From NCBI GenBank assembly GCA_013824755.1, contig PNOJ01000001.1, forward strand, positions 14,474 through 78,473: 64,000 nt of DNA, written 5' to 3'. The position numbers and the translations under genes are program-made. The notes beneath the pieces are model-generated. The model saw only the letters and a program-made list of their open reading frames with translations. It had not been told where the DNA came from and did not search any database. The stretch's first letter is position 1. Each line of letters begins with the position of its first letter. This DNA comes from Gemmatimonas sp. Lineage in GTDB: Bacteria; Krumholzibacteriota; Krumholzibacteriia; LZORAL124-64-63. Below, in pieces: positions 20,437-64,000 of this stretch.

Positions 20437-20453
20437 CGGTGCGAGGAGTAGCC

Positions 20454-22513: not shown

Positions 22514-22525
22514 AGGTTCGTCTCG

Positions 22526-45024: not shown

Positions 45025-45471
45025 GTGGGCAAGCGACGCAAGGGCAGGGAACTGCTCGTCCAGGCCCTCTACGCGGCCGCCCTCAGCGGCCAGGACCTGC
45101 AGGTCTGCGTGGACGACCAGCTGGAGAGGCGCGACGCGCCGGGGGACACGGCCGATTTCGCCCGGTCGCTCGCGGCGCTGATCGCGCAGCACCGGGCGAG
45201 CCTCGACGCGACCCTGGACGGGCTGCTGCAGAACTGGGACCCCGAGCGCGTCGGCCAGGTGGAGCGCGCGATCTGCCGGCTGGCGCTGGCCGAGCTGCGC
45301 TACTGCCCCGAGGTGCCGGTCCGCGTCGCGATCAACGAGGCCTGCGAACTGGCGCGGCTGTACTGCGGGGACGAGGCCGTGGGCTTCATCAACGGCCTGC
45401 TCGACCGTGCGGCGCGGGACCTCGCTGCCGCGCGCGGTCCCGCGGGCGACGGCGGGGGAGGCCCGCGGTGA
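45025..45471 (+). CDS. nusB: Transcription antitermination factor NusB
   Basis: NusB family. GTG start. Confidence 0.85.
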   Translation: MGKRRKGRELLVQALYAAALSGQDLQVCVDDQLERRDAPGDTADFARSLAALIAQHRASLDATLDGLLQNWDPERVGQVERAICRLALAELRYCPEVPVRVAINEACELARLYCGDEAVGFINGLLDRAARDLAAARGPAGDGGGGPR

Positions 45472-46262
45472 GGGTCTCGACCCGGCGCCACTGGCAGGAC
45501 TTCTGGGACGAGGCCGACCGCCTCAGCCTGGACGACGTCTACGGCAACGACGGCCGCATCGTGCGCGAGCTGTTCGCCCTGGGCGATCCCGCGGGCAAGC
45601 GGGTCCTCGAGGTGGGGGCCGGCAGCGGCCGCGACGCCGTGGCGCTGGCCCGCGCCGGCGCGGAGGTCTGGACGCTGGACTACGTGCCGGGGTCGCTGGC
45701 GCTGACCGCGCGGGCCGCCGCACAGGCCGGCGTCCGCGTGCAGGCGGTGAACGGCGACGCCCTGTGCAAGCCCTTCGCCGACGGGACCTTCGACCTGGTC
45801 TACCACCAGGGCCTGCTCGAGCACTTCCGCGACCCGCTGCCCCTGCTGCGCGAGGACCTGCGCGTGCTGAAGCCGGGCGGGCGGCTGCTGGTCGACGTGC
45901 CGCAGACCTGGCACTACTACACCCTGGGCAAGCAGCTGCTGATCGCCCTGGACCGCTGGTTCGCGGGCTGGGAGACGCAGTTCACGCCGGCCGGGCTCGA
46001 GGGCGCCGTCCGGCGCGCCGGCGGCGAGGTGGTGCGCACCTACGGCGACTGGATGGTGCCCGGGCTCTGGTACCGCGCGCTGCGCAAGACGCTGCTGTCC
46101 CGGCTCGGCCTGCGGCTGCCGATGTACCCGGATCCGGTGCCGCCGCTCGGGCGGCTGCTGGCGCGCTGGCGCGAGCGGCACCGCGGGCGTCGCTGGGCCC
46201 TGCACACCGCGATGACCATCGGGGTGATCGTGCGCCGCGACGACGCGGGAGGCGGCGCGTGA
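45468..46262 (+). CDS. Class I SAM-dependent methyltransferase
   Basis: Motif I VLEVGAGSGRD. GTGA overlap with nusB. Confidence 0.7.
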   Translation: MRVSTRRHWQDFWDEADRLSLDDVYGNDGRIVRELFALGDPAGKRVLEVGAGSGRDAVALARAGAEVWTLDYVPGSLALTARAAAQAGVRVQAVNGDALCKPFADGTFDLVYHQGLLEHFRDPLPLLREDLRVLKPGGRLLVDVPQTWHYYTLGKQLLIALDRWFAGWETQFTPAGLEGAVRRAGGEVVRTYGDWMVPGLWYRALRKTLLSRLGLRLPMYPDPVPPLGRLLARWRERHRGRRWALHTAMTIGVIVRRDDAGGGA

Positions 46263-47383
46263 GGATCCTGGCCCTGAATTGGCGCGACGTCGGCGACCCC
46301 CTGGGGGGCGGCGCCGAGCTGCACCTGCACGAGATCCTCAAGGGGGCCGTGGCCGCGGGCCACGAGGTGGACCTGGTGACGTCCGGCTACCGCGGCGCGC
46401 CGCCGCAGGCGACGCTGGACGGCGTGTGCGTGCACCGCCGCGGCCACTGGGCCGTGGCCAACTTCGTGCTGCCGGGCGTCTGCCGCCGCCTGCTGCGCAC
46501 GGGCCGTTACGACCTGCTGGTCGAGGACATCAACAAGGTCCCGTTCTACTCCCCGCTGTTCGCCGGCCGCGTGCCCGTGCTCGCGGTCGTGCCGCACCTG
46601 TTCGGGGCCACGGTCTTCCGCGAGGCCAACCCCCTGGTGGCGTCCTACGTCTGGGCGGCGGAACGCCTGCTGCCGCTGGCCTACCGCGGCCGGGACTTCG
46701 AGGTCATCAGCCCCTCGACCCGCGACGACCTCGCGCGCCGCGGCCTGGACGCCGCGCGGATCCGCACCGTGTACTGCGGCAACGACGCGCGGCGCCTGGA
46801 GCTGCCCGCCCCGCCGCCGCGCGACGATCCCCCGCTGCTCGTCTCGTGGAGCCGCCTGCGCCGCTACAAGAGCGTGGACGTGGCGCTGCGCGCCTTCGCG
46901 CACGTGCGCCGCGCGGTGCCGGGTTCGCGGCTCGTCGTGATGGGCCGCGGACCGGACGAGGCCCGGCTGCGTCGCATGGCGGCTGGCCTGGGCCTCGGCG
47001 GGGATGTCGTGTTCGCCGGCTACCTGCCGGACGCGGAGCTGGCGGCGACCCTGCACCGGGCCCGCCTGTTCCTGAACCCCAGCCCCAAGGAGGGGTGGGG
47101 GCTGACCGTCATCGAAGCCGCCGCCTGCGGCCTGCCGACGATCGCGAGCGACCGTCCCGGGCTGCGCGACTCGGTGCGCGACGGCGAGACGGGCCTGCTG
47201 GTGCCCTACGGCGACGACCGGGCCATGGCCGCCGCCGCCGTCGCCCTGCTGCGCGACGAGGCGCGCTGGCGGACGATGAGCGCGGCCGCCCGCGCCTGGG
47301 CCGGCACCTTCAGCTGGGAGCGCTGCGTGCGCGAGTCCCTGGACGTCTTCGCGGACGTCGCGGCGCGGCGGGGTCGGCCGTGA
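46259..47383 (+). CDS. GT4-family glycosyltransferase
   Basis: EX7E motif EGWGLTVIEAAACGLP...DGETGLLVP. GTGA overlap. Confidence 0.8.
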   Translation: MRILALNWRDVGDPLGGGAELHLHEILKGAVAAGHEVDLVTSGYRGAPPQATLDGVCVHRRGHWAVANFVLPGVCRRLLRTGRYDLLVEDINKVPFYSPLFAGRVPVLAVVPHLFGATVFREANPLVASYVWAAERLLPLAYRGRDFEVISPSTRDDLARRGLDAARIRTVYCGNDARRLELPAPPPRDDPPLLVSWSRLRRYKSVDVALRAFAHVRRAVPGSRLVVMGRGPDEARLRRMAAGLGLGGDVVFAGYLPDAELAATLHRARLFLNPSPKEGWGLTVIEAAACGLPTIASDRPGLRDSVRDGETGLLVPYGDDRAMAAAAVALLRDEARWRTMSAAARAWAGTFSWERCVRESLDVFADVAARRGRP

Positions 47384-48357
47384 GGCGCCCCCGGCAGACG
47401 ACGATCCTGAAGGCGGGGATCAGCCTCGCGCTGGTGGTGTTCCTGTTCGCCTACCGCCCCCTGTCCTGGTCGGCCCTGCGCACGGCCGTGGCGGCTCCGC
47501 ACTGGCCCTGGTTCGCCCTGTCGGGTTGCGTGTTCGCGCTGTCGGCGGTGTGCGGCGCGCTGCAGTGGGCCTGGATCCTGCGCTGTTCGGGGCTGAGGGT
47601 GACCGTCGGCGAGGCGGTCCGGCTGAGCTTCGTCGGGCTCTTCTTCAACAACTTCCTGCTGGGCAACGTGGGCGGCGACGCCTACAAGGTCGTCGACCTC
47701 GGCCGTCGCGAGGGGCGCACCGCCGCGGTGCTGGGGGCGACGCTGCTGGACCGGCTGCTGGGCCTGCTGGCGTTGACCGTGCTGGCCCTGCTGGCGGTCC
47801 CGACCGCGGCGGCGGCGGGCGTGCGCGTGCCGCCGACGCTGCCGCTGTGGCTGGCGCTCGCGGCCTGGTCGCTGGCGATCGCCGTCCTGTTCTCGCGCCG
47901 CGTCTCGGCGCTGGCGGTCCGCGCGCTGACGGCCGCGCGCTGGGGCCGGGCTGCCGACGGCCTCGGCACGATGTTGGCGGAGTTCAAGACCTACCGGGAG
48001 CGGCCCGTCTGGCTGGCCCGCTTGCTCGCCTGGTCCCTGTTCGTGCAGGCCATGCGCGTGTCGACCCACCTGCTGGTGGCGCTCGGCCTGGGCCTCGCCC
48101 TGGACGCGGGCCGTGTCCTGCAGCTGTTCGTGCTGGTCCCCCTGCTGGGCATCCTGGTTTCGCTGCCGGTGAGCATCAACGGGCTGGGCGTGCGCGAGCT
48201 GGCCGCCGCGGAGCTGTTCGTGGCCGCCGGCGTGGTGCCGACCGAGGCCGACGCGGTGGCCATGGAGTTCCTGGCCTACGCGCTGATGGTCGCGGTCAGT
48301 CTGGCGGGCGGCGCGCTCTTCCTGGCCGGTCCGCGACGCCGCCGCGGCGCCGCCTGA
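47380..48357 (+). CDS. UPF0104/lysyl-PG-synthase-TM-like flippase-type membrane protein
   Basis: Eight or more TM helices. Conserved GNVGGDAYKV-like motif. GTGA overlap. Confidence 0.6.
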   Translation: MRRPRQTTILKAGISLALVVFLFAYRPLSWSALRTAVAAPHWPWFALSGCVFALSAVCGALQWAWILRCSGLRVTVGEAVRLSFVGLFFNNFLLGNVGGDAYKVVDLGRREGRTAAVLGATLLDRLLGLLALTVLALLAVPTAAAAGVRVPPTLPLWLALAAWSLAIAVLFSRRVSALAVRALTAARWGRAADGLGTMLAEFKTYRERPVWLARLLAWSLFVQAMRVSTHLLVALGLGLALDAGRVLQLFVLVPLLGILVSLPVSINGLGVRELAAAELFVAAGVVPTEADAVAMEFLAYALMVAVSLAGGALFLAGPRRRRGAA

Positions 48358-48391
48358 ACGCCGCCGCGGCGGGCGGGGAACCCCGGTCGCC

Positions 48392-48425
48392 GCGGGGTTG
48401 TTGCCCCCCGGACCGTGTGCTAGAT
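48392..48425 (+). promoter_or_regulatory. Putative promoter (TTGTTG-N17-TAGATT) after hairpin terminator 48378-48400
   Basis: Hairpin AACCCCGG-tcgccg-CGGGGTT, then a -35/-10 pair upstream of the DUF2723 gene. Confidence 0.35.
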
Positions 48426-48466
48426 TGGCGAGTCGTCCGCGCCGGAACCCGAATCCGAGGAATCCC

Positions 48467-51016
48467 ATGCTGGCACCCGACTGGTACCGCCGCCCGACGT
48501 TCCTGATCGCGGCGGGCGTCTTCGTCCTCGCGACGATCGTCTACTGCCTGACGCTGTCGCCGACGCTGAGCTTCTGGGACTGCGGCGAGTACATCACCAC
48601 CGCGCACACCATGGGCGTCCCGCACCAGCCGGGCACGCCGCTCTACGTGCTGGTCGGCCGCTTCTTCGACATCCTGCTCGCGCCGCTGGCCGGCACCGCG
48701 GCGGCGGTCAACTTCATGTCGGCGTTCTTCAGCGCCCTGGCCCTGGTCTTCGTCTACCTCACGATCCAGGAGATCGCCCGGCGCGCCGATCCCGACAGCG
48801 GGTGGCTCCCCCACGCCGGGGGCGTGGTGGGCGCGCTGTTCCTGCTGTTCAGCGAGACCTACTGGAGCAACGCGATCGAGGCCGAGGTGTACGGGCTGGC
48901 GGCCTTCGTCGTCGCCTTCCTGACCTGGCTGGGGCTGAAGTGGTACGACCTGCGGGCCGAACCGCACAGCGACCGCCTGCTCTACCTCGTCATCTACCTG
49001 CTGGGCCTGGGGGTCGGCTTCCACCTGGGCACGCTGCTGGTCTTCCCGGGCATCTTCCTGCTGATCCTGCTGGCGGGCGGGCGCAAGCTCGCCCTGGCGG
49101 ACCTGCTGGGCGTCAGCGTCGGTCTCGGCCTGTTCCTGCTCTCGACCATGGTCAAGGACGACTTCGTGATCGTCGGCGGCCTGGTCCTGCTGCTGATCTA
49201 CGCGCTGTCGCGCGCCTTCGGCGGCAAGCCCTTCATCCTGATCGGCTGCGGCGTGTTCCTGCTCGGCCTGAGCGTCCACCTGATCCTGCTGATCCGCGCC
49301 GGACTCGACCCGGCGCTCAACAACACGCAGCCCGACAACTTCCAGACCCTGATGTCGGTGCTGCGGCGCGAGCAGTACCCGCCCATCGACCCGCTGGTGC
49401 GCAAGGCCGACCTCTGGTGGCAGATCCGCTACTACTACGGCTTCCTGCTGGACCAGTTCAGCTTCCTGGACCTCGGCTCGCTCCGCCCGACGCGCCTGCT
49501 GACGATCCTGGTGCCGGTGTTCCTGGGCCTGCTCGGGGCGATCCACGGCTTCTTCCGCGCCCGCCCCTGGTACTGGATGCTGCTGGTGAACTACGTGATC
49601 AACGCCGACATCCTGAACCTCTACCTCAACTTCTCGGACAACGAGGTCCGCGAGCGCGACTACTTCTTCTCCACCGCCTTCATGTTCTTCGCCCTGTTCA
49701 TCGGCCTGGGCGCCGCGGCGCTGCTGCGCTACCTCTCGGGGCCGCTCGCGGCGCGCGGCGCCCGCCTCGCCAAGCCGGCCAGGATCGGCCGGGCGGCGGC
49801 GGGGACGGCGGCGGCGCTGATCCTGGTCGCGGCCCTGCCTGCGCTCGCCCCCGGCAGCGCGAAGTGGTACCGCCACGACCGCACGCAGAACCGCACGGCG
49901 CACGAGTACGCCTGGAACCTCCTGTCGGGCCTGGATCCCGGCGCCATCGTCTTCACCAACGGGGACAACGACACCTACCCGCTGTGGTACCTGCAGGAGG
50001 TGGAGGGCTTCCGGCGCGACGTGACCGTGGTCAACCTGGCGCTGATCAACCTGCCCTGGTACGTCAAGCAGATGAAGCGGCGCTCCCCGCCGATGCCCGT
50101 CTCCTACGACGACACGCAGCTGGAGCAGCTGCGCCCCGTGCTGTACCAGGACCCCGACACCGGGAAGCAGGAGGTCGTGTACGTGCGCGACTACATCGTG
50201 CACGACATCATCCAGAACCGCGGCCAGCGCCCGGTCTTCTTCGCGGTGACGATCCCCCAGGAGAACATGGCCCGCTACTTCACCATGCTCCAGATGGAGG
50301 GGCTGGCCTACCGCTTCACCGGCGTCAAGGGGCCGGACGGCATGCCCACGGTCGACAGCGACCGCCTGCTGGCGAACTGCTACGGGGTCTACGACTTCAG
50401 CGCCACCCTGGACGGCGATTCCGAGCGCCGCCGGTCCGAGTTCCGCACCCTGAACAACCTGCCGCAGAACCCGAGCCCCGAGGGCGAGGTCCGCGAGCTC
50501 CTGGGCGAGCGGGACTGGCGGTTCGAGGGGTTGTGGCGGTACAACGGTCGCCACCGCGAGGATGTCCACTTCGACCGCAACGCCGAGAACCTGCTGGGCA
50601 ACTACCCGGCGGGCCTGATCCGCGCCGGCTACGACTTCATCATGCGGGCGCAGGCGCCCGACGCCACCGACGCCGTCTACGACGAGATGATCGCCAAGGC
50701 GGAGACCGCGTTCGAGCTGGCCAGCAGCTTCGACCCCACGTTCCCGATGGTGACCGACATCTACCCCATGGTGCTGGTCGAGCGCGGGCGGGCCCGGGAC
50801 GCGGCGGCCCACGTGCAGCGCCTCCACGGGGCGATCCCGCCCCGGGACGAGCAGGCCCTGATCCCGCAGCTGGTCCAGGCCATGGTGCAGCGGGGAGAGG
50901 ACGCCGTGGCGGTCGCCTGGATGCAGGAGCGCCTGCGCGACGATCCCCAAGACGCCGTGGCGCGCCAGCAGCTCGACGCCCTGCTCGCCGCGGGCGCCGC
51001 GGGGAGCGCCCCATGA
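48467..51016 (+). CDS. DUF2723 / PMT-TMEM260-like GT-C fold membrane glycosyltransferase with soluble C-terminal domain
   Basis: N-terminal motif FWDCGEYITTAHTMGVPHQPGTPLY. About 11 TM helices. Long C-terminal helical domain. GAGGAA RBS. Confidence 0.7.
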   Translation: MLAPDWYRRPTFLIAAGVFVLATIVYCLTLSPTLSFWDCGEYITTAHTMGVPHQPGTPLYVLVGRFFDILLAPLAGTAAAVNFMSAFFSALALVFVYLTIQEIARRADPDSGWLPHAGGVVGALFLLFSETYWSNAIEAEVYGLAAFVVAFLTWLGLKWYDLRAEPHSDRLLYLVIYLLGLGVGFHLGTLLVFPGIFLLILLAGGRKLALADLLGVSVGLGLFLLSTMVKDDFVIVGGLVLLLIYALSRAFGGKPFILIGCGVFLLGLSVHLILLIRAGLDPALNNTQPDNFQTLMSVLRREQYPPIDPLVRKADLWWQIRYYYGFLLDQFSFLDLGSLRPTRLLTILVPVFLGLLGAIHGFFRARPWYWMLLVNYVINADILNLYLNFSDNEVRERDYFFSTAFMFFALFIGLGAAALLRYLSGPLAARGARLAKPARIGRAAAGTAAALILVAALPALAPGSAKWYRHDRTQNRTAHEYAWNLLSGLDPGAIVFTNGDNDTYPLWYLQEVEGFRRDVTVVNLALINLPWYVKQMKRRSPPMPVSYDDTQLEQLRPVLYQDPDTGKQEVVYVRDYIVHDIIQNRGQRPVFFAVTIPQENMARYFTMLQMEGLAYRFTGVKGPDGMPTVDSDRLLANCYGVYDFSATLDGDSERRRSEFRTLNNLPQNPSPEGEVRELLGERDWRFEGLWRYNGRHREDVHFDRNAENLLGNYPAGLIRAGYDFIMRAQAPDATDAVYDEMIAKAETAFELASSFDPTFPMVTDIYPMVLVERGRARDAAAHVQRLHGAIPPRDEQALIPQLVQAMVQRGEDAVAVAWMQERLRDDPQDAVARQQLDALLAAGAAGSAP

Positions 51017-52010
51017 CCGCCCTGGCGGCCGGGGCGCGCGTCGTGGTCACCGGCTGCGCCGGGTTCATCGGCAGCCACCTCGCCGAGGCCCTGCTGGACC
51101 GGGGCTGCGAGGTCGTCGGCATCGACGCGCTGACCGACTACTACGACCCGGCGCTCAAGCGCGAGAACCTGGCGCCGCTGCTGGGCCGGCCCGGCTTCGT
51201 CTTCCACCACGCCGATCTGAACGACGTCGACGCGGTTGCGCTGCTCGCCGGCAGCCGCGCCGTGTTCCACCTCGCCGCCCAGGCCGGCGTGCGCGCCAGC
51301 TGGGGGCACCTGTTCGGCGACTACCTGGCGTGCAACCTGGCCGCCACCCAGCGCCTGCTGGAAGCCTGCCGCGACCCGCGGGTGGCGCCGGGGCTCGTCC
51401 GGTTCGTCTACTCCAGCTCCAGCTCGGTGTACGGCGACCGCCTCGACCTGCCGGTGACCGAGCGCGCGCTGCCGCAGCCCTTCTCGCCGTACGGCGTGAC
51501 CAAGCTGGCGGCCGAGCACCTCTGCGTGCTCTACGGCGCCAACCACGGCGTGCCCACCACGTCCCTGCGCTACTTCACGGTCTACGGGCCGCGCCAGCGG
51601 CCCGACATGGCCTTCCGCAAGTTCCTCGAGGCGGCCTTCGACGGGAAGCCCTGGATCGTCTTCGGCGACGGTTCGCAGACGCGGGATTTCACCTACGTGT
51701 CCGACGCGGTGGACGCGAACCTGCGCGCGGTCGAGGCGCCCGGAACGTGGGCGGTGTACAACGTCGGCGGCGGCGCGCGCGTCCCGCTGGCCGCGGCCCT
51801 GGCGGCCATGCGCGACCTGCTGCGCGAGGCGGCGCCCGAGGTCCGCGTCGGGTCGAGCACGTGCCGGTCGAGAAGGGCGACGTGCGCGACACCTGGGCCG
51901 ATCCCGGCCTCATCCGTGACGAGATCGGCTACGTCGCGCGGGTCCCGTTCGGCGAGGGACTGCGCCGCGAGGTGCTCTGGGTCGCCGCGCGCAGGAGGGG
52001 ACATGCCTGA
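51013..52010 (+). CDS. NAD-dependent sugar epimerase/dehydratase (SDR family), apparent -1 frameshift near 51850
   Basis: VVTGCAGFIGSHL, YxxxK (YGVTKLAAE). The C-terminus VEHVPVEKGDVRDTWADPGLIRDEIGY continues in another frame. The shift sits in a G-run gtcggg. Confidence 0.75.
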
Positions 52011-52938
52011 CGTCCGGCCCGACCTCTCGGTGGTGGTGCCAGCGCTGAACGAGGCGGCCTCGCTGCCCGAGCTGACGGCGCGCATCGCGGCCGCGGCGGC
52101 CGCGGCGGGACTGTCGCACGAGGTGTGGATCATCGACGACGGCAGCACCGACGACACGCCCGCCGTGCTCGAGCGGCTCCACGCCGCCGACGCCCGCGTC
52201 CGCGGTCTGGAGTTCACGCGCAACCACGGCAAGGCCGCCGCCCTGGCCGCCGGTTTCGCGGCCGCCGCGGGGCGCTACGTGATCACCATGGACGCCGACC
52301 TGCAGGACGACCCCGACGAGATCCCGCACCTCGTGGCGAAGCTGGAGGAGGGCTTCGACCTCGTCTCCGGCTGGAAGCAGGACCGCAAGGACGGCTTCGT
52401 CAAGAACACCACGTCGCGGTTCTTCAACGAGGTCACCAGCCGCGCCGTGGGGTTGCGGCTGCACGACTACAACTGCGGGCTGAAGGCCTACCGCCGCGAG
52501 GTCGTCGAGGCGGTGCGCCTCTACGGCGAGATGCACCGCTACATCCCGGCGCAGGCCTACCGCGAGGGGTTCCGGGTGACCGAGATCCCCGTGCGCCACC
52601 ACCGCCGCCGCCACGGCGTCACCAAGTACGGTCCGGCCCGCTTCCTCAACGGCTTCCTGGACCTGCTGACCCTGATGTTCCTCAGCTCGCGCTCCGCCTC
52701 GCCCCTGCACCTGTTCGGGCGCATCGGCGCGGCCAGCTTCGCGGTCGGCGGCGCGATCCTGGCCTGGTTCGTCGTGCAGTGGGCGCTGGGTCACGGCTTG
52801 CGGGTGCGGCCGCTGATGCTGCTGGGCGCCGGTCTGGTCATCGTCGCCGTCCAGTTCGTCAGCCTCGGCCTGATCGCCGAGCTGGTGGTGGCGGGCAACC
52901 ATCCCGAGACGGGGTACCGTGTCCGCCGCCGCCACTGA
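52003..52938 (+). CDS. GtrB/CsbB/ArnC-like GT2 polyprenyl-phosphate sugar synthase with C-terminal TM helices
   Basis: VVVPALNE, DDGSTDDT, DADLQDDP, then two C-terminal TM helices. AGGAGGGG RBS. Confidence 0.8.
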   Translation: MPDVRPDLSVVVPALNEAASLPELTARIAAAAAAAGLSHEVWIIDDGSTDDTPAVLERLHAADARVRGLEFTRNHGKAAALAAGFAAAAGRYVITMDADLQDDPDEIPHLVAKLEEGFDLVSGWKQDRKDGFVKNTTSRFFNEVTSRAVGLRLHDYNCGLKAYRREVVEAVRLYGEMHRYIPAQAYREGFRVTEIPVRHHRRRHGVTKYGPARFLNGFLDLLTLMFLSSRSASPLHLFGRIGAASFAVGGAILAWFVVQWALGHGLRVRPLMLLGAGLVIVAVQFVSLGLIAELVVAGNHPETGYRVRRRH

Positions 52939-53893
52939 CGCCCCTGGGTCAGACGGGAGGTCCGGGACGACCGGGACGCCGCCGCCGTCCCTGGCCGTGG
53001 TCGTCGTCAACTGGAACGGGCGCGACCACCTGCCCGAGTGCATCGGCTCCCTGCTCGCCGACGGCTACGACCCCCTGCGCATCGTCGTCGTCGACAACGC
53101 GTCGGACGACGACTCGGTCCGGTTCTGCCGCGACGCCTTCCCCTCGGTCGAACTCGTCATCGCGGACCGCAACCGCTACTGGGCGGGCGGCAACAACCTC
53201 GGGCTGCGGCACCTGCGCGCGACCGGGGGCGCGGATCACACGCTGCTGCTGAACAACGACACCATCGTGCCGCAAGGGAGCCTCGCCCGTCTGGTGGAGG
53301 CGATCGCCCGCGAGCCGGGCGCCTGGGCGGCGACGCCGCGCATCTGCTTCGCGGACGAGCCCTGGCGCATCTGGTACGACGGCGGGCGGGTCGGGCGCTT
53401 TTCGGGCTGGGTGGGGCACCAGGGCATCCGGCAGGCCGCCGGGCGCCGTGCGCTCGACGAGCGGTTCGTGGAGTACGGCACGGGGTGCGCGCTGCTGCTG
53501 TCGCGCCGGGCCCTCGAAACGGTGCCGGAACTGGACGAGGCCTACACCTTCTACGGCGAGGACACCGACTACTGCCTGCGCCTGCGGGCGGCGGGCGGCC
53601 GCATCCTGCACGTCCCGCGCTCGTTGATCCTGCACAAGGTGAGCGCATCGGTCGGCGCGTGGTCGCCGCGCAAGGCCTACCTGCGCAGCCGCAGCCACGT
53701 CCGCCTGCTGGGGCGCCACTGGCGGGGGGCGGCGCGCGCGGCGCTCTGGCCGTGCCAGGTGGCGTACTTCGCCGGGCACGCGGCCTGGCACCTGTGGCAG
53801 GGGAGGCCCGCCGTCGCGCGCGCCGTCCTGGCGGGCGCCCTGGACGAACTGGCGGGGCGGCCCGCGGAACCCCCTGTCGCTCCTCGGGTTTGA
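52919..53893 (+). CDS. GT2-family glycosyltransferase (rhamnosyltransferase-like)
   Basis: VVVVNWNGRDHL, VVDNASDDDS, and a DxD-like motif (YGEDTDY). Confidence 0.7.
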   Translation: MSAAATDAPGSDGRSGTTGTPPPSLAVVVVNWNGRDHLPECIGSLLADGYDPLRIVVVDNASDDDSVRFCRDAFPSVELVIADRNRYWAGGNNLGLRHLRATGGADHTLLLNNDTIVPQGSLARLVEAIAREPGAWAATPRICFADEPWRIWYDGGRVGRFSGWVGHQGIRQAAGRRALDERFVEYGTGCALLLSRRALETVPELDEAYTFYGEDTDYCLRLRAAGGRILHVPRSLILHKVSASVGAWSPRKAYLRSRSHVRLLGRHWRGAARAALWPCQVAYFAGHAAWHLWQGRPAVARAVLAGALDELAGRPAEPPVAPRV

Positions 53894-53983
53894 CCGTCTC
53901 TCGGGAGTGGACGCCCGCGGCCGCCGGATGATATCCTCGGCCGGCTGGAAGCCGCGGCCACGCCGCATCCGAAAGGGAATCAC

Positions 53984-56500: not shown

Positions 56501-56519
56501 TGAGCAGCGAGGTGGCGTC

Positions 56520-57248
56520 GTGAAGTGCGTGGTCGTGATCCCGACCTACAACGAGGCCGATAACATCGGCCGCATCGTGCCGGCGGTCCTGGCCAGGGAT
56601 CCCGGCCTCTCGGTCCTGGTCGTCGACGACAACTCGCCGGACGGGACCGCGGCCGTGGTCAAGGCCCTGCCCGACTACGGCGGGCGCGTCCGCATGCTCG
56701 AGCGGCCGGGCAAGGCGGGGCTGGGCGCGGCCTACATCGCCGGCTTCCAGTGGGTCCTGGCCAACACCGACGCCGAGGCCGTCTTCGAGATGGATGCCGA
56801 CTTCAGCCACGACCCCGCGGCCATCGACACCTTCCTGCAGGAGATCCGGGACCACGACGTCGTGCTCGGCAGCCGCTACCTCTACGGCATCACGGTCGTC
56901 AACTGGCCGCTGCGCCGGGTGATCCTGAGCGTCGGCGCGAACATCTACGCCCGCCGGGTCACGGGCATGCCCATCAAGGACTCCACGGGCGGCTTCAAGT
57001 GCTTCCGGCGGGAGGTGCTCGCGGCCCTGCCGCTGGCGAGCATCAAGAGCGACGGCTACTCCTTCCAGATCGAGATGAACTACCACTGCTGGCGGCGGCG
57101 CTTCCGCATCAAGGAGATCCCGATCATGTTCGTCGACCGCCAGGTCGGCGTCTCGAAGATGTCCAAACGGATCGTCTGGGAAGCGATGTGGATGGTCTGG
57201 GCCCTGCGGCTGCGGCGCGAACCGCGCGGCCCCGGAGGAGCGGCTTGA
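56520..57248 (+). CDS. Polyprenol-phosphate mannose synthase (Ppm1/DPM1-like GT2)
   Basis: VVIPTYNEADNI, VVDDNSPDGT, and a DAD-like motif (EMDADFSHDP). Soluble, about 240 aa. GTG start behind GAGGTGG. Confidence 0.8.
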   Translation: MKCVVVIPTYNEADNIGRIVPAVLARDPGLSVLVVDDNSPDGTAAVVKALPDYGGRVRMLERPGKAGLGAAYIAGFQWVLANTDAEAVFEMDADFSHDPAAIDTFLQEIRDHDVVLGSRYLYGITVVNWPLRRVILSVGANIYARRVTGMPIKDSTGGFKCFRREVLAALPLASIKSDGYSFQIEMNYHCWRRRFRIKEIPIMFVDRQVGVSKMSKRIVWEAMWMVWALRLRREPRGPGGAA

Positions 57249-59301
57249 AGCTCTCGGTCGTCATCGTCCATTTCAACACCAGCGACGACCTCGGCCGCTG
57301 CCTGGACGCGCTGGCGCGCTGCCCGCCGACCTGCGACCACGCGGTGACGGTCGTGGACAACGCCTCGACCGACCCGGGCCTCGCCGCGGTCCGCGAGGCG
57401 CACCCGGGCGTGCGCTGGCTCGTGAACGCGCGCAACGAGGGCTACGCCCGCGGCTGCAACCGCGGCCTGCGGGCCGCCGACGCCGACTTCACCCTGCTGC
57501 TCAATCCGGACGTGGTGGTGCAGCCGGGCGCGATCGACGCGCTGCTGCGCGCCGCCGAGGCGCACCCCCGGGCCGGCCTGCTCGGCCCTCAGCTGCTGAA
57601 CGAGGACGGCACGATCCAGGAATCGTGCCGGCGCTTCTACACGCTCGGCACCCTGCTGATGCGGCGCACGGTCCTGGGACGCCTGGCGCCGAACTCCCGT
57701 GCCGTGGCCCGCCACCTCATGCGCGACTTCGACCACCTGGCGACGCGGCCCGTGGACTGGGTCATCGGCGGCTGCGTGCTCGTGCGCCGCGAGGCCGTGG
57801 CCCGCGTCGGCGCCATGGACGAACGCTTCTTCCTCTATTTCGAGGACGTCGACTGGTGCTACCGCATGGGCCAGGCCGGCTACGACGTGCTCTACGTCGC
57901 GGAGTCCCGCTTCGTCCACCGCCACCGCCGCGACAGCGCGCGCGGCCCGATGCGCCGCAGCTTCTGGCTGCACCTGACGAGCCTGATCTCCTTCTACGAG
58001 AAGTGGGGCCTGCTGGTCTACCTGCTCAAGCGCTGGCGCGACCCCCTCGGCACCTTCGCGTTCTGGTTGACCGATCTGGCGGCGCTGAACGCGTCGCTGC
58101 TGGCCGCCTACGCCCTGCGCGGCGCGCTGAACCCCTTCTTCGACGACCCGCTGCTGCCGCTCGCCTGGTACCAGCCCCTGTTCGTGTTCGCCAACCTGCT
58201 GACGAGCCTCGGCTTCCTGCTGCTGGGCCGCTACCGGCGCGGCGCCCGCGGCCGTTCCCCGCGGGCCGGGGACCGGATGCAGCAGGTCGCCGCCGTCACC
58301 TTGCTGCTGTGGGCGAGCACCTACATGAGCCATCAGCACGTCTACAGCCGCGTGGTGCTGCTGCTGTTCTGGCCGCTGCTGCTCGGGACGCTCCTGCTGA
58401 GCGAAACCGCGTTCCTGGCCTTGCGACGCCGCATGGAACGCGGTTACCTGTCGCTGGAGCGCACGCTGCTGGTGGGGGCCGACGCCGGGGTCAGGGACTG
58501 GCTGGAGCGCGGGCCGGACCCTCGCGGCTGCGGGCTGGACGTGGTGGGCTACCTGGCCGCCGACGTGGCCGAAGAGGGGACCGCGCGCAGCGGTCCTGAC
58601 GTGCCCCGCCTCGGCGCGCCCGCGGACCTCGTCGACATCGTCGACCGCTACCGCATCGCCCAGGTCGTGTTCTGGCAATGGCCGACGGGCGCGGCTCCCG
58701 AATGCGGGCGCTGGCGTTGCTGCGCCGGCGCCGGGTCCGGTTGCGTTGGCGGGTGGACTCCGCGGCGCTGCTGCAGGCCGGCGCCCGCGCCGAGGAATTC
58801 GGCGGCGCCGCGAGCGCCGTGCTCGATCCCGGGCCGGCGCGGCCCGGCCGGGACCTCGCCGGCCGCCTCGCCGCCGCGTCCCTGGGCCTGCTGCTGCTGC
58901 CGGTGTGCCTGCCGGCGGCTTCGCTGGCGAGGTTGCGGCGCGGCTGGGAGAACCGGGACTTCCTGGCGGCGCCCGCCGGCGAGGAGTCGCTGGCCCGCAC
59001 CTGGCGCCTGCTCTGCGGTCGCGATGGCCGACCCTGCGGCCTGCTGCGGCAACCCACCCTGGCCCGGGCCCTGATCACCGGCCGCCTGGCCCTGGCGGGG
59101 GCGCCGCTCGTTCCCTGCGGGCCCCACGGCGCGCCGCCGCCGCCCGGCGCCCTCGCGGATCCGTGGCGGCTCGAACCCCCCGCCGCCGGTCTCGGCGGCG
59201 TCTGGGCCGGACGCGGGGCGGCCCGCTTCCGACGCGCCCTGCACGACCCGGCCGGGATTTCCCGGCTCGAACGTGGGAACACCGAACAGGAGAACCCGTG
59301 A
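57245..59301 (+). CDS. GT2 domain fused to a multi-TM / CoA-binding-like domain, probable frameshift near 58680
   Basis: TTGA overlap. GT2 motifs (SVVIVHFNT, TVVDNAS, FEDVDW). TM block plus Rossmann-like LLVGADAGVRDWL. The high-GC3 frame switches at about 58680 and ends at the GTGA overlap with the next gene. Confidence 0.5.
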
Positions 59302-61709
59302 AGCGCATCCACCGGACCGCGAGCGCGCTCGCGCCCTTGATCTTCGTCTTGGCGCTGCTCGCCGCCGGCGCCGTCGCGCCCCGGGCGGTCGCCCAGGCGG
59401 TCCGCCTCGAAACCGTCCTGAGCGCCCAGGACTGCGTGGCCCTGCTGGCGGCCGACGGCCGGCTGTTCGGCGGCCTCGCCGAGGGGGGCGTGCTGGTGAT
59501 GGACGCCGACGGCGGCATCGTCGGGCGCTGGGGGGCGGTCGACGGGCTCGCCGGCGACCGCGTCGTCGACCTGGCCTGGAGCGGCACCCACCTGTGGGTG
59601 GCCTGCCAGGGCGCGGGCCTGACCCGCGTCGATCCCGAGCCGCTCGGCCCCGTGTTCCGGCAGGTGACCAACCTCGGCTCGGACCTCGAGATCACGGCCG
59701 TGGCCGCCGGCACCGAGCGCGTCTACTACGGTCTGCTGGACGGCGGCGTGGGCGTGATCAGCGGCGGCCTGCCCGGCGGCGTGATGACCACCGCGAACAC
59801 GCCCGGCCTGGTGAGCGACATCATCCTGGACCTGCTGCTGGACGGCGGGGACCTGTGGATCGCGACCGCCGCCGGCGTGTCGCTGCAGCGCAACAACGCG
59901 GTGAGCGACGCGAGCACCGGCATCGGTCCGCAGGCCGTGTTCGCGCTGCGGCTCGTCCCGGGGCTGGGGCTCCTGGCGGGCGCGGGCGACGGCGTCTGGT
60001 CGTGGGACGGGAGCGCGGGCGCGTGGTCCCGCCTGGGCGACCTCGCGCTGCCGGTGAGCGACCTCGCGAACGTCGGCGCCGAGCCCTGGGCCCTGGTCGT
60101 GGCGGACGGCGTCGCCGACCGCCTGCGTCGCTGGGACGGCGCGGCCTGGCAACCCGTCGACGCGCCTGCAACCGACGTGCACGCGCTCGAAGGCACCGAC
60201 CGGCTCTGGTGCGCCGGCCTGCGGCGTCCCGAGCCGGCGAACCTGAAGGCGGCCCGCGCCTTCGTCGCCGCCCGCGACGGCGACGGCTGGACCCTGAACC
60301 AGACGGACGAGCTGCTGTTCACCTCCGTGGACGGCGTCGCCTTCGACGCCGCGGGCGTGCCCTGGTTCGGCTCGCGGCAGGGGGGCGGCATCGCGCGGCG
60401 CGACGGCGGCGTCTGGACGCAGGTCGCGAACCTCGCCGCGACGGCCGCGGATTCGGTCGGGCTCTACAATTTCGACGGCGGCATGCTCGCGCTCACGGCC
60501 CGCGCCGACGGCGAGATCTGGTTCACGCAGTTCCAGACCGGCGTGATCCGCTACCGCCCCGGAATCCCCGACATGGACCACCTGACGCCCGACACGTCGC
60601 CGCTGTCGACGCGCCGCATCGTGCGGATCGTGCACCACCCCGACGGCCCCGTGCTGCTGCTGAGCGACCGCGACGGCGTCGACGTGCTGGTCGATCCCGA
60701 TCACTGGCGGGACCCGGCGTCCTGGATCCGCCTGCCGACCGACAACACCGGCCTGGGCGGCGGCGTCGTCTTCGACGCCGTGGTCGACGGCCGCGACCGC
60801 GTCTGGTTCGCGGTGACCGGCGTGGGCCTGGTGCTCTGGGACCTCAACGGCATCGGCGGCGCCGACGACGCGCTGACCTGGCACGACGCGGGCGACGACG
60901 TCTGGACGCCCCCGGCGACGTTGACGGCGGGCGTCTTCGACCTCACCAGCGCGCGCGCGGTGGACGTCGGCGCGGACGGGACGATCTGGGTCGGCGGCGG
61001 CAGCGGCCTGGCGCAGCTCTCCTACCGGTCGTACGACGACAACACGCTGGACATGACCCTGGTGCGCTCGCTGCGGGCGAAGGTCGACAGCGCGACGCCC
61101 GGCCTGCTCCAGGGCACGCTCCTGGACGTGGAGGTCGACGGCAACGGCGACGTGTGGGTCGGCCACGACGCCGGGTTCGAGCGTGTGCGGATCCGCGACG
61201 ACGAGGTGCTGGTCGATCCCTTCACCAACGCCGCCGAGTATGCGAGCTACGGGCTGTCCGCCTACTACACGGCGGACATCGTGGCCGGCACCCCGCAGGG
61301 CCCGGTGCGCGAGCTGACGACCGACGCCACGGGACTGCGGTTGCTGGCCGGCGCCGCGGGCGGCGCCGTGCTGGTGACCATCGCCCGCGACCGCGTCGAG
61401 GGGGAGGGGCCGCTCGCACCGCTCTTCCTCTACCCCAACCCGCTGCTGGTGGGCGAGCACGACGGCCTGCGCCTCGGCGGCATCGACGCCGAGACCGTCG
61501 CGACCTCCCTCGAGATCACCGGCGGCGCCCTGGTGGAGATCTTCACCGTCGACGGCCAGCTGGTGTACCGCGATCGCCACGTCGCGAACGACGCGGTGTT
61601 CTGGAACGGGATCAACCTCACGGGCGAGGTCGTGGCTTCCGGGACGTACCTCGCGCGCGTGGAGCTGTCGGGACAGGTGCGCGTGCTGCCGCTGGCCCTG
61701 GTCCGCTGA
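59298..61709 (+). CDS. Secreted beta-propeller repeat protein with T9SS/FlgD-Ig-type C-terminal sorting domain
   Basis: Signal peptide. Many Reg_prop-like repeats (DLWIATAAGVSL, GTIWVGGGSGLAQL, GDVWVGHDAGFERV). C-terminus LYPNPLL...FTVDGQLVYRD...WNGINLTGEVVASGTYLARVEL matches the Por-secretion CTD pattern. Confidence 0.65.
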   Translation: MKRIHRTASALAPLIFVLALLAAGAVAPRAVAQAVRLETVLSAQDCVALLAADGRLFGGLAEGGVLVMDADGGIVGRWGAVDGLAGDRVVDLAWSGTHLWVACQGAGLTRVDPEPLGPVFRQVTNLGSDLEITAVAAGTERVYYGLLDGGVGVISGGLPGGVMTTANTPGLVSDIILDLLLDGGDLWIATAAGVSLQRNNAVSDASTGIGPQAVFALRLVPGLGLLAGAGDGVWSWDGSAGAWSRLGDLALPVSDLANVGAEPWALVVADGVADRLRRWDGAAWQPVDAPATDVHALEGTDRLWCAGLRRPEPANLKAARAFVAARDGDGWTLNQTDELLFTSVDGVAFDAAGVPWFGSRQGGGIARRDGGVWTQVANLAATAADSVGLYNFDGGMLALTARADGEIWFTQFQTGVIRYRPGIPDMDHLTPDTSPLSTRRIVRIVHHPDGPVLLLSDRDGVDVLVDPDHWRDPASWIRLPTDNTGLGGGVVFDAVVDGRDRVWFAVTGVGLVLWDLNGIGGADDALTWHDAGDDVWTPPATLTAGVFDLTSARAVDVGADGTIWVGGGSGLAQLSYRSYDDNTLDMTLVRSLRAKVDSATPGLLQGTLLDVEVDGNGDVWVGHDAGFERVRIRDDEVLVDPFTNAAEYASYGLSAYYTADIVAGTPQGPVRELTTDATGLRLLAGAAGGAVLVTIARDRVEGEGPLAPLFLYPNPLLVGEHDGLRLGGIDAETVATSLEITGGALVEIFTVDGQLVYRDRHVANDAVFWNGINLTGEVVASGTYLARVELSGQVRVLPLALVR

Positions 61710-61717
61710 GGGGCGGC

Positions 61718-62743
61718 ATGACGCATCGCGCTGCCAACCTCGAACTCGTCCGCGGCGCGCGTCCGGGACCGCACTGGCGACGCCTGCACGCGCGCTGCGG
61801 CGGCGGTTTCGCCGGCGCCGACGTCTGGACCGCGACGCTCTGCGCCAACCTGCCGCGCCGCTCGGGCGCCTGGGCGACCGCGACGTCGGCGGGGGAGACC
61901 GTCGGCGGGCTCGCCTGGCTCGAGACCGTGCGCGGCCCCTTCCGCACGCTGGAAGCGCACCACGCCGGCCTGCCCTGCGACCTGCTGCTGGATCCGGCTC
62001 TCGAACCCGCGCACCGTCGCGCCGCCGCCGCCGCCCTGCTGGGCGCCTGGACCGCGGCCGCGCGCTCGCCCCTGACCCTGGTCGCGACGCTCCACGCCGA
62101 GGGCCCCACCGACGACGAGGTGGCGGCGCCGCTGTCCGCGAGCGGGTTCCGCCGCACGGCGGTGCCCGTGGCCTACTTCCCGCTGGCGCAGGGCCTCGAC
62201 CACGTGGAGGCGCACCTGCTGAAGAAGAACCGGCGCAACGAACGCAACCGCTCGCTGCGGCGCGGCTGCACGACGCAGGTCACGTCCGACCCCGCGGTGA
62301 TCGACGAGTTCCTGCCGATCTACGCCGCGGCGATCCGGCGTTGGGGCTCGCCGCCCATCCCGTCCGGCTTGCTGCGGGGACTGCTCGCCGACGGCGACGG
62401 CGGCGCCTACTGCACCACGGTCCGTCGCGACGGCGCCCTGCTGGGCGCCCATCTCTGCCTGCAGGCCGGCGGCACGGTGACCGCCTGGGTCGGGGCCACG
62501 GTCGACAGTACCCGCGACGGCACCGACGACGTCTTCCCGGCGACCATGCTGGTCTGGGCGGATCTCGTGGAGGCCTGCCGGCGCGGCGCGTCGCGCCTGG
62601 ACCTCGGCGGCCACGGCGGCCAGCGGGGGGTGGCGCAGTTCAAGGAACTGCTCGGCGCCCTCACGCTGGAACGCGCGATGTGGCGGCGGACGTCGCGCCT
62701 CGGTGCGGCGGCGCTGGCGGCGCGACGGGGAGGGGGCCGTTGA
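61718..62743 (+). CDS. FemAB/GNAT-fold (CelD/BioF2-like) acyl/aminoacyl-transferase family protein
   Basis: About 340 aa. High-GC3 frame. ATG at 61718. Confidence 0.45.
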   Translation: MTHRAANLELVRGARPGPHWRRLHARCGGGFAGADVWTATLCANLPRRSGAWATATSAGETVGGLAWLETVRGPFRTLEAHHAGLPCDLLLDPALEPAHRRAAAAALLGAWTAAARSPLTLVATLHAEGPTDDEVAAPLSASGFRRTAVPVAYFPLAQGLDHVEAHLLKKNRRNERNRSLRRGCTTQVTSDPAVIDEFLPIYAAAIRRWGSPPIPSGLLRGLLADGDGGAYCTTVRRDGALLGAHLCLQAGGTVTAWVGATVDSTRDGTDDVFPATMLVWADLVEACRRGASRLDLGGHGGQRGVAQFKELLGALTLERAMWRRTSRLGAAALAARRGGGR

Positions 62744-64000
62744 AGCTCCTGCGCGAGGGTGCGGCGGTGCTGGGTCTGCGGCTCGGCCAGGCCGCGGCCG
62801 GGGCGGGCGCCGGGTTGGTGGTCGCACGCGCGCTCGGCCCCGACGGGCAGGGCCGTTACGCGCTGGGGATCACGCTGCTGTTGTTCGCGGCCGCGGCCGT
62901 CAACGGCGGCGTGGGCCTGGCCGCCGTCCCGGCGATCCGGGGCCGGCCGGCCTCGGCGCGGTCCCTGATGCGGACCCAGGCGCTCTGGACGGGCGCCGCG
63001 TCGTTGGCGGCCGCCGCGCTGGGGGCGCTGGCCTGGCGGACGGAGGCGGGCGCGTCGCTCGCCGCCCGCCTCGGCTGGAGCGGCGCGACCGCCGCGGCGA
63101 TGGTCGGCGCGCTCGCCGCCCTGGTGCTGTGCGACATCCTCGCCTACGACCTGCTGGCCTTGGGCCGCCTGCGGACGGGCACCGCCGTGAACCTCGGCAG
63201 GGGGCTGCTGCAACTGGCCCTGCTGGGGGCGGCGCTCGCCTCCGGCGCCTTCGGCCTCACGGCAGCCCTGGTCATCTTCTGCGTCAGCCAGGTGGCCGGC
63301 GTCGTGGTGTTCGCGGTCCTGGCCGTGCGCCACGCACGCCACGCGGGCTGCGCGACCGAGGCGGCGCCGGTCCGTCACGCCGTCGGTTGGGCGGGGCTCG
63401 TGCGGGCCGGTTGGCAGGGCCAGTTGTCCGCGGTCGTGTCGCTGCTCCACATGCGCCTGGCCCTGGCCCTGGTCGCGGCCTGGCACGGCGCGACGGCGGT
63501 GGGGATCTACTCGGTGGCGGTGATGATCGGCGAGGTGCTCTGGCTGCTGCCGAGCGCGCTGCAACCCCTGCTGGTCTGGTCCGCCGCGGCGCCGGACCGG
63601 GCGACGGGCGACGACACCTCGGCGCGCGCCGTGCGGGTCGCGCTCGCGGCCACGACGATCGCCGCCTGCCTGACGGCGGTCGCCGCGCCGCTGCTGCTCG
63701 CCCCGCTCTTCGGGGCGCAGTACCGCGCGGCGGTGCCGGTCCTGTGGGCGCTGCTGCCCGGCATCGTGGCCTGCGCGCCGGGCGCCGTGCTGGCGGGCGA
63801 CTTCATCGGCCGCGGCCGTTCCGCCTGGAACACCCAGGCCAGTCTCGTCACCCTGGCGGTCAACGCCGGAGCGGGCCTGGCGCTGATCCCGGATCACGGT
63901 CTGCAGGGCGCCGCGCTGGCCACCTCCCTGGCCTACACCGTGGGCAGCGCGGTCATGCTGGCCCGCTTCCGCCGGGTCGCCTCGCTGCCCTGGCGACGGC
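62740..64000 (+). CDS. Wzx-type MOP-superfamily polysaccharide flippase (3' end beyond window)
   Basis: Twelve or more TM helices, polysaccharide biosynthesis protein pattern. TTGA overlap. No stop before the window end. Confidence 0.6.
   Translation, partial: MKLLREGAAVLGLRLGQAAAGAGAGLVVARALGPDGQGRYALGITLLLFAAAAVNGGVGLAAVPAIRGRPASARSLMRTQALWTGAASLAAAALGALAWRTEAGASLAARLGWSGATAAAMVGALAALVLCDILAYDLLALGRLRTGTAVNLGRGLLQLALLGAALASGAFGLTAALVIFCVSQVAGVVVFAVLAVRHARHAGCATEAAPVRHAVGWAGLVRAGWQGQLSAVVSLLHMRLALALVAAWHGATAVGIYSVAVMIGEVLWLLPSALQPLLVWSAAAPDRATGDDTSARAVRVALAATTIAACLTAVAAPLLLAPLFGAQYRAAVPVLWALLPGIVACAPGAVLAGDFIGRGRSAWNTQASLVTLAVNAGAGLALIPDHGLQGAALATSLAYTVGSAVMLARFRRVASLPWRR

Follow-up and report, generated by a model that had tools for sequence, protein, structure and literature searches.

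The window analysed here, 64,000 nucleotides of contig PNOJ01000001.1 from a member of Candidatus Krumholzibacteriota, ends in a block of 13 co-directional, mostly overlapping genes (45468-64000, all on the + strand) that is a phylum-wide core envelope operon. The more specific reading, that the products of these 13 genes together assemble a conserved cell-envelope glycoconjugate in two compartments, is given a probability of about 0.5. An earlier note on this DNA had proposed a glycosylation system of the periplasm with lipid-linked monosaccharides as donors. The block holds two synthase-like family 2 glycosyltransferases (GT2), two glycosyltransferases of the GT-C fold and a flippase-like protein, and the strong co-conservation of these genes makes glycosylation with such donors in the periplasm a sound reading of their predicted functions.

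Gene frames and starts were set by third-position GC, because at the approximately 74% G+C of the window spurious long open reading frames occur in every frame. From 36 kb to the end of the window all genes lie on the + strand, and SMC, FtsY, RibD, RibE, RibBA, RibH and NusB are encoded upstream of the block. Start and stop codons overlap by 4-20 nt at nine of the 13 junctions (the nusB-methyltransferase junction counted) and the widest intergenic gap in the block is 109 nt; the genes therefore form one operon that continues from nusB. Identities were obtained from Pfam, NCBIfam and Protein Data Bank (PDB) sequence searches, which upheld the UPF0104 flippase-like, NAD-epimerase, GT4/GT2, methyltransferase and FemAB-like calls of the earlier note. 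The genes are the following (TM, transmembrane; CTD, C-terminal domain; T9SS, type IX secretion system).

45468-46262, + strand: S-adenosylmethionine (SAM)-dependent methyltransferase (Pfam Methyltransf_11, 74 bits), the start overlapping the nusB stop by 4 nt.
46259-47383, + strand: GT4 glycosyltransferase (BshA/MshA/glycolipid-synthase-like), cytoplasmic (Pfam Glycos_transf_1, 129 bits).
47380-48357, + strand: UPF0104/MprF-flippase-like membrane protein with about 7 TM segments (Pfam LPG_synthase_TM, 101.6 bits).
48467-51016, + strand: GT117 (TMEM260-like/DUF2723) GT-C (Pfam PF11028, 171.1 bits; cutoff 24.2).
51013-52010, + strand: NAD-dependent sugar epimerase/dehydratase of the short-chain dehydrogenase/reductase (SDR) type (Pfam Epimerase, 190 bits for the frame-repaired protein).
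52003-52938, + strand: GT2a, ArnC/GtrB-type polyprenyl-phosphate glycosyltransferase (PDB ArnC 187 bits, GtrB 105 bits).
52919-53893, + strand: GT2b, soluble cytoplasmic GT2, rhamnosyl-/galactofuranosyl-transferase-like (Pfam GT2, 59.5 bits).
53984-56500, + strand: divergent YfhO-family GT-C (predicted GT-C fold; Pfam YfhO 29.0 bits, cutoff 28.5).
56520-57248, + strand: GT2c, TM-less GT2 resembling DPM1/Ppm1-like polyprenyl-phosphate hexose synthases (PDB Pyrococcus furiosus dolichol-phosphate-mannose (DPM) synthase, E=6.6e-25).
57245-59301, + strand: GT2 fused to a WbaP-like TM/CoA_binding_3 region and a degenerate phosphoglycosyl-transferase-like tail (Pfam GT2, CoA_binding_3).
59298-61709, + strand: PorZ-like exported protein with a signal peptide, two beta-propellers and a nine-strand C-terminal immunoglobulin (Ig)-like domain of the T9SS-CTD type.
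61718-62743, + strand: FemAB-type (Acetyltransf_6) acyl/aminoacyl transferase (Pfam PF13480, 53.5 bits; cutoff 22).
62740-64000, + strand, running past the window end: candidate flippase of the multidrug/oligosaccharidyl-lipid/polysaccharide (MOP) superfamily (Wzx/MurJ-like), with at least 9 TM segments in the 420-aa part inside the window.

For the synteny comparison one genome per species was scanned by tblastn with all window proteins, which gave 80 loci; presence was counted over those loci whose flank reaches far enough to judge the gene. Order and strand of the block were the same in every assessable locus, and synteny persists where individual proteins are 23-35% identical. The DUF2723 gene (46/46), the epimerase (50/50), GT2a (52/52) and the PorZ-like propeller gene (46/46) were always present, and GT2b (51/55), GT2c (64/65), the GT2 fusion (58/60) and the UPF0104 gene (42/44) nearly so. 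Conservation within the block is highest for GT2c, with 59-98% identity across the phylum. The position of the block is also fixed, with nusB on one side and mraZ/rsmH on the other; the methyltransferase lies directly 3' of nusB in relatives too, and at the far end the flippase-like gene is followed there by mraZ, a STAS gene and rsmH, i.e., the start of the division and cell-wall (dcw) cluster. An order and strand kept in about 80 species genomes are not due to chance and mark a core pathway. The co-conservation on which the earlier note had made its proposal depend was thus found; being a core operon of the whole phylum, the block is not a variable island for decorating the surface. The GT117 and YfhO-like proteins have their homologues in metagenome-assembled genomes (MAGs) of Candidatus Krumholzibacteriota or Krumholzibacteriia, some of them under legacy labels, and the nearest relatives (86-92% identity) include activated-sludge MAGs (Lyne, Ejby). 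A literature search returned no publication on this locus or on the envelope of Krumholzibacteriota.

Some variation in gene content was seen between clades. Many clades carry an added UDP-GlcNAc 4,6-dehydratase of the PseB/PglF/CapD type (Polysacc_synt_2) between the PorZ-like and FemAB genes (e.g., at 17720-19210 in locus L053 and 17408-18880 in L036), a gene that the clade of the window does not have. Seven loci from deep clades (L056, L059, L062, L066, L068, L080 and L084) have two tandem DUF2723/GT117 genes (at about 600-5800) and an extra GT4 gene between GT2a and GT2b, and a match to the Wzx-like protein went undetected in them. The STAS gene that stands between mraZ and rsmH in close relatives (e.g., in the region L006:20253-22145) is an unusual insertion at the point where the dcw cluster begins.

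The GT117 protein matches PF11028 at residues 38-202, its homologues also have PF28495 (TMEM260_2), and some of these are already called 'glycosyltransferase family 117' by NCBI. The protein consists of an N-terminal multi-TM core followed by a soluble domain of about 390 aa. The solved structure of human TMEM260 (9rql) was matched directly (E=1.8e-18) in the GT-C core and the luminal Rossmann-like domain, and the relation of the DUF2723 protein to TMEM260 that the earlier note had drawn is thereby confirmed. In the phmmer alignment, which spans residues 16-221 and 471-542 of the window protein only, D38, H53 and D500 correspond to human D52, H67 and D441. TMEM260 is a protein O-mannosyltransferase of IPT domains (PMC10214176; bioRxiv 10.64898/2026.03.17.711096), in which D52 and H67 belong to the donor site and D441 is the catalytic base activating the acceptor Thr, all being essential; R264, Y267 and R355 contact the donor, and C-terminal tetratricopeptide repeats (TPR) recruit the peptide acceptor (bioRxiv 10.64898/2026.03.17.711096). 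Pfam finds no TPR domain in the window protein at E<0.01; its last approximately 150 residues are helical by eye, and two homologues are labelled TPR repeat protein by the Joint Genome Institute (JGI). The literature search found no function reported for bacterial GT117/DUF2723 proteins; this one may act on proteins, as the conserved catalytic base hints, or on a glycan.

The protein encoded at 53984-56500 is a GT-C enzyme, as judged from its predicted structure, and a divergent YfhO relative. Its AlphaFold2 model (pLDDT 86, pTM 0.87) has a TM core to about residue 521, a soluble beta-rich domain and a C-terminal TM anchor. Foldseek returned AftD, ArnT, EmbC/EmbA-EmbB and STT3 at probability 1.00, matches that reflect the shared GT-C core only (TM-score 0.3-0.5). 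The earlier note had called this protein a YfhO GT-C enzyme; the model bears out the GT-C fold, and YfhO membership is marginal, the Pfam PF09586 match of 29.0 bits against a cutoff of 28.5 covering the last 49 residues only (759-807). Of 37 family members, 36 also match PF09586 at E<0.01 (best 8e-10), and a few homologues are labelled 'YfhO family protein' by NCBI. No relative of known structure came up with a sequence profile of the family, hence the comparison of folds. D50, in the first external loop, is invariant in the 37 sequences and is inferred to be catalytic. By sequence families and structure, neither 48467-51016 nor 53984-56500 falls into an unrelated family outside GT-C, in agreement with the earlier note.

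Two of the GT2 proteins resemble polyprenyl-phosphate sugar synthases. GT2a aligns end to end with solved ArnC (residues 8-295, 187 bits; GtrB 105 bits) and has a C-terminal TM hairpin, its TM segments lying within 241-296; against the NCBIfam ArnC equivalog NF007986 it scores 189 bits, below the cutoff of 529. It appears to be an ArnC/GtrB-type polyprenyl-phosphate sugar synthase and is not an ArnC orthologue. Of the CsbB/GtrB-like assignment made previously, the enzyme type and the C-terminal TM helices stand, and the closest relative is ArnC rather than CsbB or GtrB. The best solved relative of GT2c is a dolichol-phosphate-mannose synthase (5mlz from P. furiosus; residues 1-229, 91 bits, E=6.6e-25) and no TM segment is present, as expected for the soluble Ppm1/DPM1-like enzyme proposed earlier; the AglJ, PpgS and hexose-transferase models of NCBIfam score about 40-61 bits, AglJ and PpgS lying near 60, all under cutoff. 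The TM topology is consistent with these roles: GT2a ends in a hairpin, GT2c has no TM segment, and each GT-C protein carries a large soluble domain.

The pairing of synthases with GT-C enzymes differs from that in the earlier note, which had placed GT2a next to the YfhO gene and paired GT2c with DUF2723. GT2b (52919-53893) intervenes between GT2a and the YfhO-like gene, and adjacency together with translational coupling favours the groups GT117-epimerase-GT2a and YfhO-like-GT2c. The eukaryotic analogy of DPM1 with TMEM260 would favour a GT2c-GT117 pair.

A further gene of possible relevance to donor supply lies 25 kb upstream of the block. The region 18039-23655 of the window encodes, near Prs (22645-23655), RmlD (285 bits, over cutoff), a GmhA-like isomerase and a UbiA-family protein (19534-20436) whose top NCBIfam match is decaprenyl-phosphate phosphoribosyltransferase (223 bits; cutoff 234). 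By analogy with mycobacteria it could provide a third polyprenyl-phosphate donor route, of the ribose/arabinose type, for the GT-C enzymes downstream.

Among the remaining enzymes, the GT4 protein has BshA and MshA as its top NCBIfam matches, under cutoff, and no TM segment. The UPF0104 protein reaches 42.7 bits against TIGR00374 ('flippase-like domain', cutoff 43.2), NCBIfam gives no subfamily for the SDR epimerase, and GT2b has weak NCBIfam matches to MftF, rhamnosyltransferase and GlfT1. The last gene appears weakly MOP/Wzx-like: the fragment in the window scores a sub-threshold 18.6 bits against MurJ, and full-length homologues score 17.5-22.8 bits against Polysacc_synt (cutoff 28.2) and 25.1 against MurJ (cutoff 27.4). 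As to the Wzx name given to it previously, at least 9 TM segments are seen in the fragment (12-14 being typical of the family), and every MOP-family Pfam score is under cutoff.

In the GT2 fusion the NCBIfam EPS_sugtrans model matches with 66 bits at model positions 2-278 only. The Asp-Glu dyad of the phosphoglycosyl-transferase-like tail is lost throughout the phylum, and the whole tail is missing in loci L036 (12927-14849) and L038 (13122-14963), the proteins of which have 559-561 aa vs. about 690; this module is thus dispensable. With the dyad lost and the module missing in two genomes, the tail is probably inactive and was rejected as a candidate for the initiating phosphoglycosyl transferase.

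In the AlphaFold2 model of the propeller protein (pLDDT 87.5) a signal peptide precedes two propellers, and a nine-strand sandwich forms the C-terminus. Compared with the PDB by Foldseek, Porphyromonas gingivalis PorZ (5m11) ranks first (E=3.3e-25, TM-score 0.61/0.65 over the full length), followed by Bacteroides hybrid two-component sensor domains (TM-score about 0.32), and a profile of 27 family members matches PorZ in a single segment that spans the last blades and the CTD (E=5.2e-16). The architecture of PorZ, i.e., a signal peptide, two beta-propellers and an uncleaved long CTD in about 750-800 aa, is found here. The NCBIfam PorZ equivalog NF052228 is the best match, a weak one (31 bits vs. 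260, CTD region only). The T9SS-type CTD announced by the earlier note is seen in the model as a nine-strand domain of that type and falls short of the T9SS CTD model TIGR04183 (17.6 bits; cutoff 23); of seven sampled proteins of the same CTD family, collected by profile search, six reach the cutoff, the passing scores being 23.6-38.6 bits. The start of the gene (59298) overlaps the stop of the GT2 fusion (59301), and the two are translationally coupled as had been proposed.

PorZ of P. gingivalis binds the phosphorylated branched mannan of the anionic lipopolysaccharide (A-LPS) and presents A-LPS to the PorU sortase (PMC8545088); its CTD is long and uncleaved and has an extra hairpin (PMC11285876). 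The sole NCBIfam match of the neighbouring FemAB-type protein is TIGR03019 (pepcterm_femAB, 29 bits; cutoff 260), a model reportedly matched by VimA, the enzyme that attaches Ser/Gly to the linking sugar of the T9SS (PMC7468200). The likeness to PorZ and the VimA-family signature of the next gene make a role in handling a glycan more likely, by analogy, than that of a dedicated substrate. The earlier note had taken the propeller protein for a secreted substrate; its best PDB match is a glycan-binding component, and nothing marks it as a target. Both parallels are best described as resemblances, every equivalog cutoff being missed.

Whether the CTD also indicates a T9SS was considered separately. 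With a hidden Markov model of the CTD, the domain was detected in the window and the 84 loci on the PorZ-like gene only, so that these loci hold no evidence of cargo; the other 45 kb of the window contain housekeeping genes and no T9SS parts. A CTD-only profile compared with 1.84 billion representative sequences gave 11,104 matches from a very broad FlgD-Ig/T9SS-CTD family, many at the extreme C-terminus and many as tandem FlgD-Ig repeats. In the literature, phyla of the Fibrobacteres-Chlorobi-Bacteroidetes (FCB) group other than the known holders are listed only as possible holders of a T9SS.

The route suggested by these assignments begins on the cytoplasmic face, where the GT4, two soluble GT2 domains, the methyltransferase, the SDR epimerase and the FemAB-type enzyme would, from their families, assemble and modify a lipid-linked glycan or glycolipid. 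Transport of lipid-linked intermediates over the inner membrane may then fall to the flippase-like proteins of the MOP type and/or the MprF type. The ArnC-like and the DPM1-like GT2 are each predicted to put one sugar on polyprenyl phosphate, and the GT117 and YfhO-like GT-C enzymes would use these polyprenyl-phosphate sugars in the periplasm to extend or decorate an acceptor. The PorZ-like double-propeller protein, once exported, might bind or pass on the finished glycan, as PorZ does with A-LPS; the final acceptor could be a lipoglycan or LPS-like anchor, or proteins.

A more specific version holds that Krumholzibacteriota use T9SS-type cargo attachment, with the PorZ-like gene hard-wired into the operon that makes its ligand, and that the GT117 and YfhO-like GT-C enzymes carry out part of the synthesis of the anchor glycan, possibly a mannan-like one, in the periplasm from polyprenyl-phosphate sugars; this version is rather unlikely. 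Several points weigh against the assembly of an envelope glycoconjugate as proposed or against this version of it. Neither T9SS machinery nor another CTD protein was found in the window or the 84 loci, and the CTD family also occurs in MAGs of Elusimicrobia and Margulisiibacteriota, phyla not known for T9SS, so that the CTD alone cannot prove such a system. An initiating phosphoglycosyl transferase in intact form, a polymerase and a ligase were not recognised. All roles are predicted ones, and by the TMEM260 analogy GT117 could act on proteins and not on a glycan. Finally, two genes are frameshifted in the window, which may leave the pathway impaired here, should the deletions be real.

These two deletions are of a single base each. 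In the SDR epimerase gene, a DNA alignment with four relatives shows 1 nt missing after 51850, the conserved C-terminus continuing in another frame; in the GT2 fusion gene, 1 nt is missing after 58702 by alignment with close relatives, again with a change of frame. The copies in relatives are unbroken (epimerase 329-349 aa, GT2 fusion 675-710 aa). The peptidyl-tRNA hydrolase gene pth (24482-25294), used as a control against general sequencing error, has an intact frame. Sequencing error or strain-specific pseudogenes may account for the two deletions. The pth product carries an insertion of about 40 Pro/Gly-rich residues in mid-domain, which splits its Pfam match.

Protein O-glycosylation is the strongest competitor, and a tentative one. 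In it the DPM1-like GT2c would make polyprenyl-phosphate-mannose (or another hexose) and GT117 would transfer the sugar to Ser/Thr of exported unfolded proteins, as do TMEM260 and actinobacterial Ppm1/Pmt, with the propeller/CTD protein maybe among the substrates and the other genes elaborating the glycan or supplying sugars. The donor-site Asp/His and the equivalent of D441, which activates the acceptor Thr in the human enzyme, are kept in GT117, whose N-terminal GT-C core, luminal-type domain and helical C-terminus (the two homologues named TPR by JGI included) also suit such a role; GT2c is DPM-synthase-like and the best conserved gene of the block, and the propeller protein has a signal peptide and is translationally coupled to the operon. 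However, Pfam detects no TPR domain in GT117 of the window, the genes coupled to GT117 are those of the epimerase and the ArnC-like GT2, not that of GT2c, and the many cytoplasmic glycosyltransferases, the MOP flippase and the FemAB-type transferase would be superfluous for simple O-mannosylation. The propeller protein, moreover, bears no mark of a target and has a glycan-binding T9SS component as its closest match.

A modification of LPS at the lipid A-core of the Arn/Rgt/Flm type, in which the epimerase makes a modified UDP-sugar, the ArnC-like GT2 loads it onto undecaprenyl phosphate, a GT-C enzyme adds it to lipid A/core and the second pair adds another residue, is improbable. An epimerase, an ArnC-like GT2 and a GT-C enzyme are also the logic of LpsL/RgtE/RgtA-D in Rhizobium and FlmF2/FlmK in Francisella; the best relatives of GT2a over its full length are ArnC structures, the GT-C gene overlaps the SDR gene and the latter overlaps GT2a, and the top fold matches of the YfhO-like protein include ArnT. 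Yet GT2a remains far from the ArnC equivalog (189 bits vs. 529), equivalents of ArnA, ArnB, ArnD and ArnE/F are not present at the locus, and by sequence neither GT-C protein is in the ArnT family (GT83). As a rule, such systems are also regulated accessories and do not stand fixed in a core operon of 13 genes. That the genes are unrelated glycosyltransferases which merely adjoin each other in a housekeeping region, with no joint function, is highly implausible. Housekeeping genes do flank the block (the rib operon and nusB upstream, the dcw cluster downstream) and two genes are frameshifted, but the conserved synteny already contradicts it: order, strand and start/stop overlaps are kept in about 80 species genomes down to 23-35% identity, and the predicted functions are complementary (donor synthases, flippase-like proteins, GT-C enzymes).

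Elsewhere in the window, selenocysteine synthase (SelA) is encoded at 33585-35012, so that the host probably makes selenoproteins.

Bacterial relatives of TMEM260 (GT117) are numerous and their role is unknown; here one stands in a fixed context with candidate synthases, a flippase-like protein and a second GT-C enzyme, i.e., with testable partners. The invariance of the block throughout an entire uncultured phylum and its place beside the division and cell-wall cluster make it probable that the product is an envelope component which defines these bacteria. Should the PorZ-like and VimA-like genes indeed serve secretion and attachment, periplasmic glycan synthesis by GT-C enzymes would be tied to protein anchoring outside Bacteroidota, and the locus would reveal which glycan genes co-evolve with PorZ. 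The cargo-attachment version, if true, would for the first time set bacterial TMEM260 relatives in a functional context and reveal a new way of arriving at a T9SS anchor beyond Bacteroidota.

Compared with known systems, the operon shares with TMEM260 (CAZy GT117; PMC10214176; bioRxiv 10.64898/2026.03.17.711096) the matched core and luminal domain, the residues D52/H67/D441 and a DPM-synthase-like gene, here in the same operon; the bacterial protein differs in its length (849 aa vs. 707-729 aa) and in having no TPR detected by Pfam. In the CsbB/GtcA/YfhO systems of Bacillus subtilis and Listeria, which glycosylate teichoic acids, an anchored GT2 makes the C55-phosphate-linked sugar, a flippase moves it and the YfhO GT-C enzyme transfers it extracytoplasmically (PMC5836110, PMC7389260, PMC8035078). 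The GT-C fold and the weak but consistent YfhO similarity of the protein at 53984-56500 recall this scheme, whereas the host belongs to the FCB group and is presumed to be diderm, with no known teichoic acid, and the locus is far larger and holds a second GT-C enzyme. In addition, GT2a is nearer ArnC, the YfhO match is marginal, and a UPF0104 protein is found rather than a GtrA/GtcA flippase: no GtrA/GtcA-family gene occurs among the scanned locus proteins, and the gaps of at most 109 nt leave no room for an unannotated one.

ArnC/ArnT and RgtE/RgtA-D are resembled in the SDR enzyme, the ArnC-like GT2 (187 bits between GT2a and ArnC over the full length) and the translationally coupled GT-C gene; unlike in these systems, the GT2 is under the ArnC cutoff, aminotransferase, formyltransferase, deformylase and ArnE/F are missing and the GT-C enzyme is of family GT117, not GT83. 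Actinobacteria combine Ppm1 with GT-C enzymes in the synthesis of lipomannan and lipoarabinomannan (LAM) via PimE, MptA/B and Emb/Aft, and in protein O-mannosylation via Pmt; the scheme comprises a glycolipid primer made by GT4 enzymes, a DPM1-like supply of polyprenyl-phosphate-mannose and elongation in the periplasm by GT-C enzymes. The operon has a GT4, a DPM1-like synthase and GT-C enzymes as well, AftD and Emb are top fold matches of the YfhO-like protein, and the decaprenyl-phosphate phosphoribosyltransferase-like UbiA gene lies 25 kb upstream. The differences are that the sequences are not members of GT39, GT87, GT53 or other mycobacterial GT-C families, that the fold matches concern the GT-C core only, and that phylum and envelope are others.

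With the A-LPS/PorZ/Wbp-Vim pathway of P. gingivalis (PMC8545088, PMC7468200, PMC5121618) the locus has in common the PorZ-like protein with two propellers and a long CTD, the FemAB-type transferase with the TIGR03019 signature of VimA, and a GT4, a WbaP-like module and a Wzx-like flippase, gene kinds that A-LPS synthesis needs. In contrast, the PorZ-like gene stands here inside a glycan operon with GT-C enzymes and polyprenyl-phosphate sugar synthases, the phosphoglycosyl transferase module is degenerate, and Wbp genes, VimE, PorU, PorV and PorQ were not seen; all matches are under equivalog cutoffs, and the presence of a T9SS in the phylum is an assumption. The system, whose functions are all predicted and whose hosts are uncultured, is best described as a variant of known multi-component transmembrane glycosylation systems.

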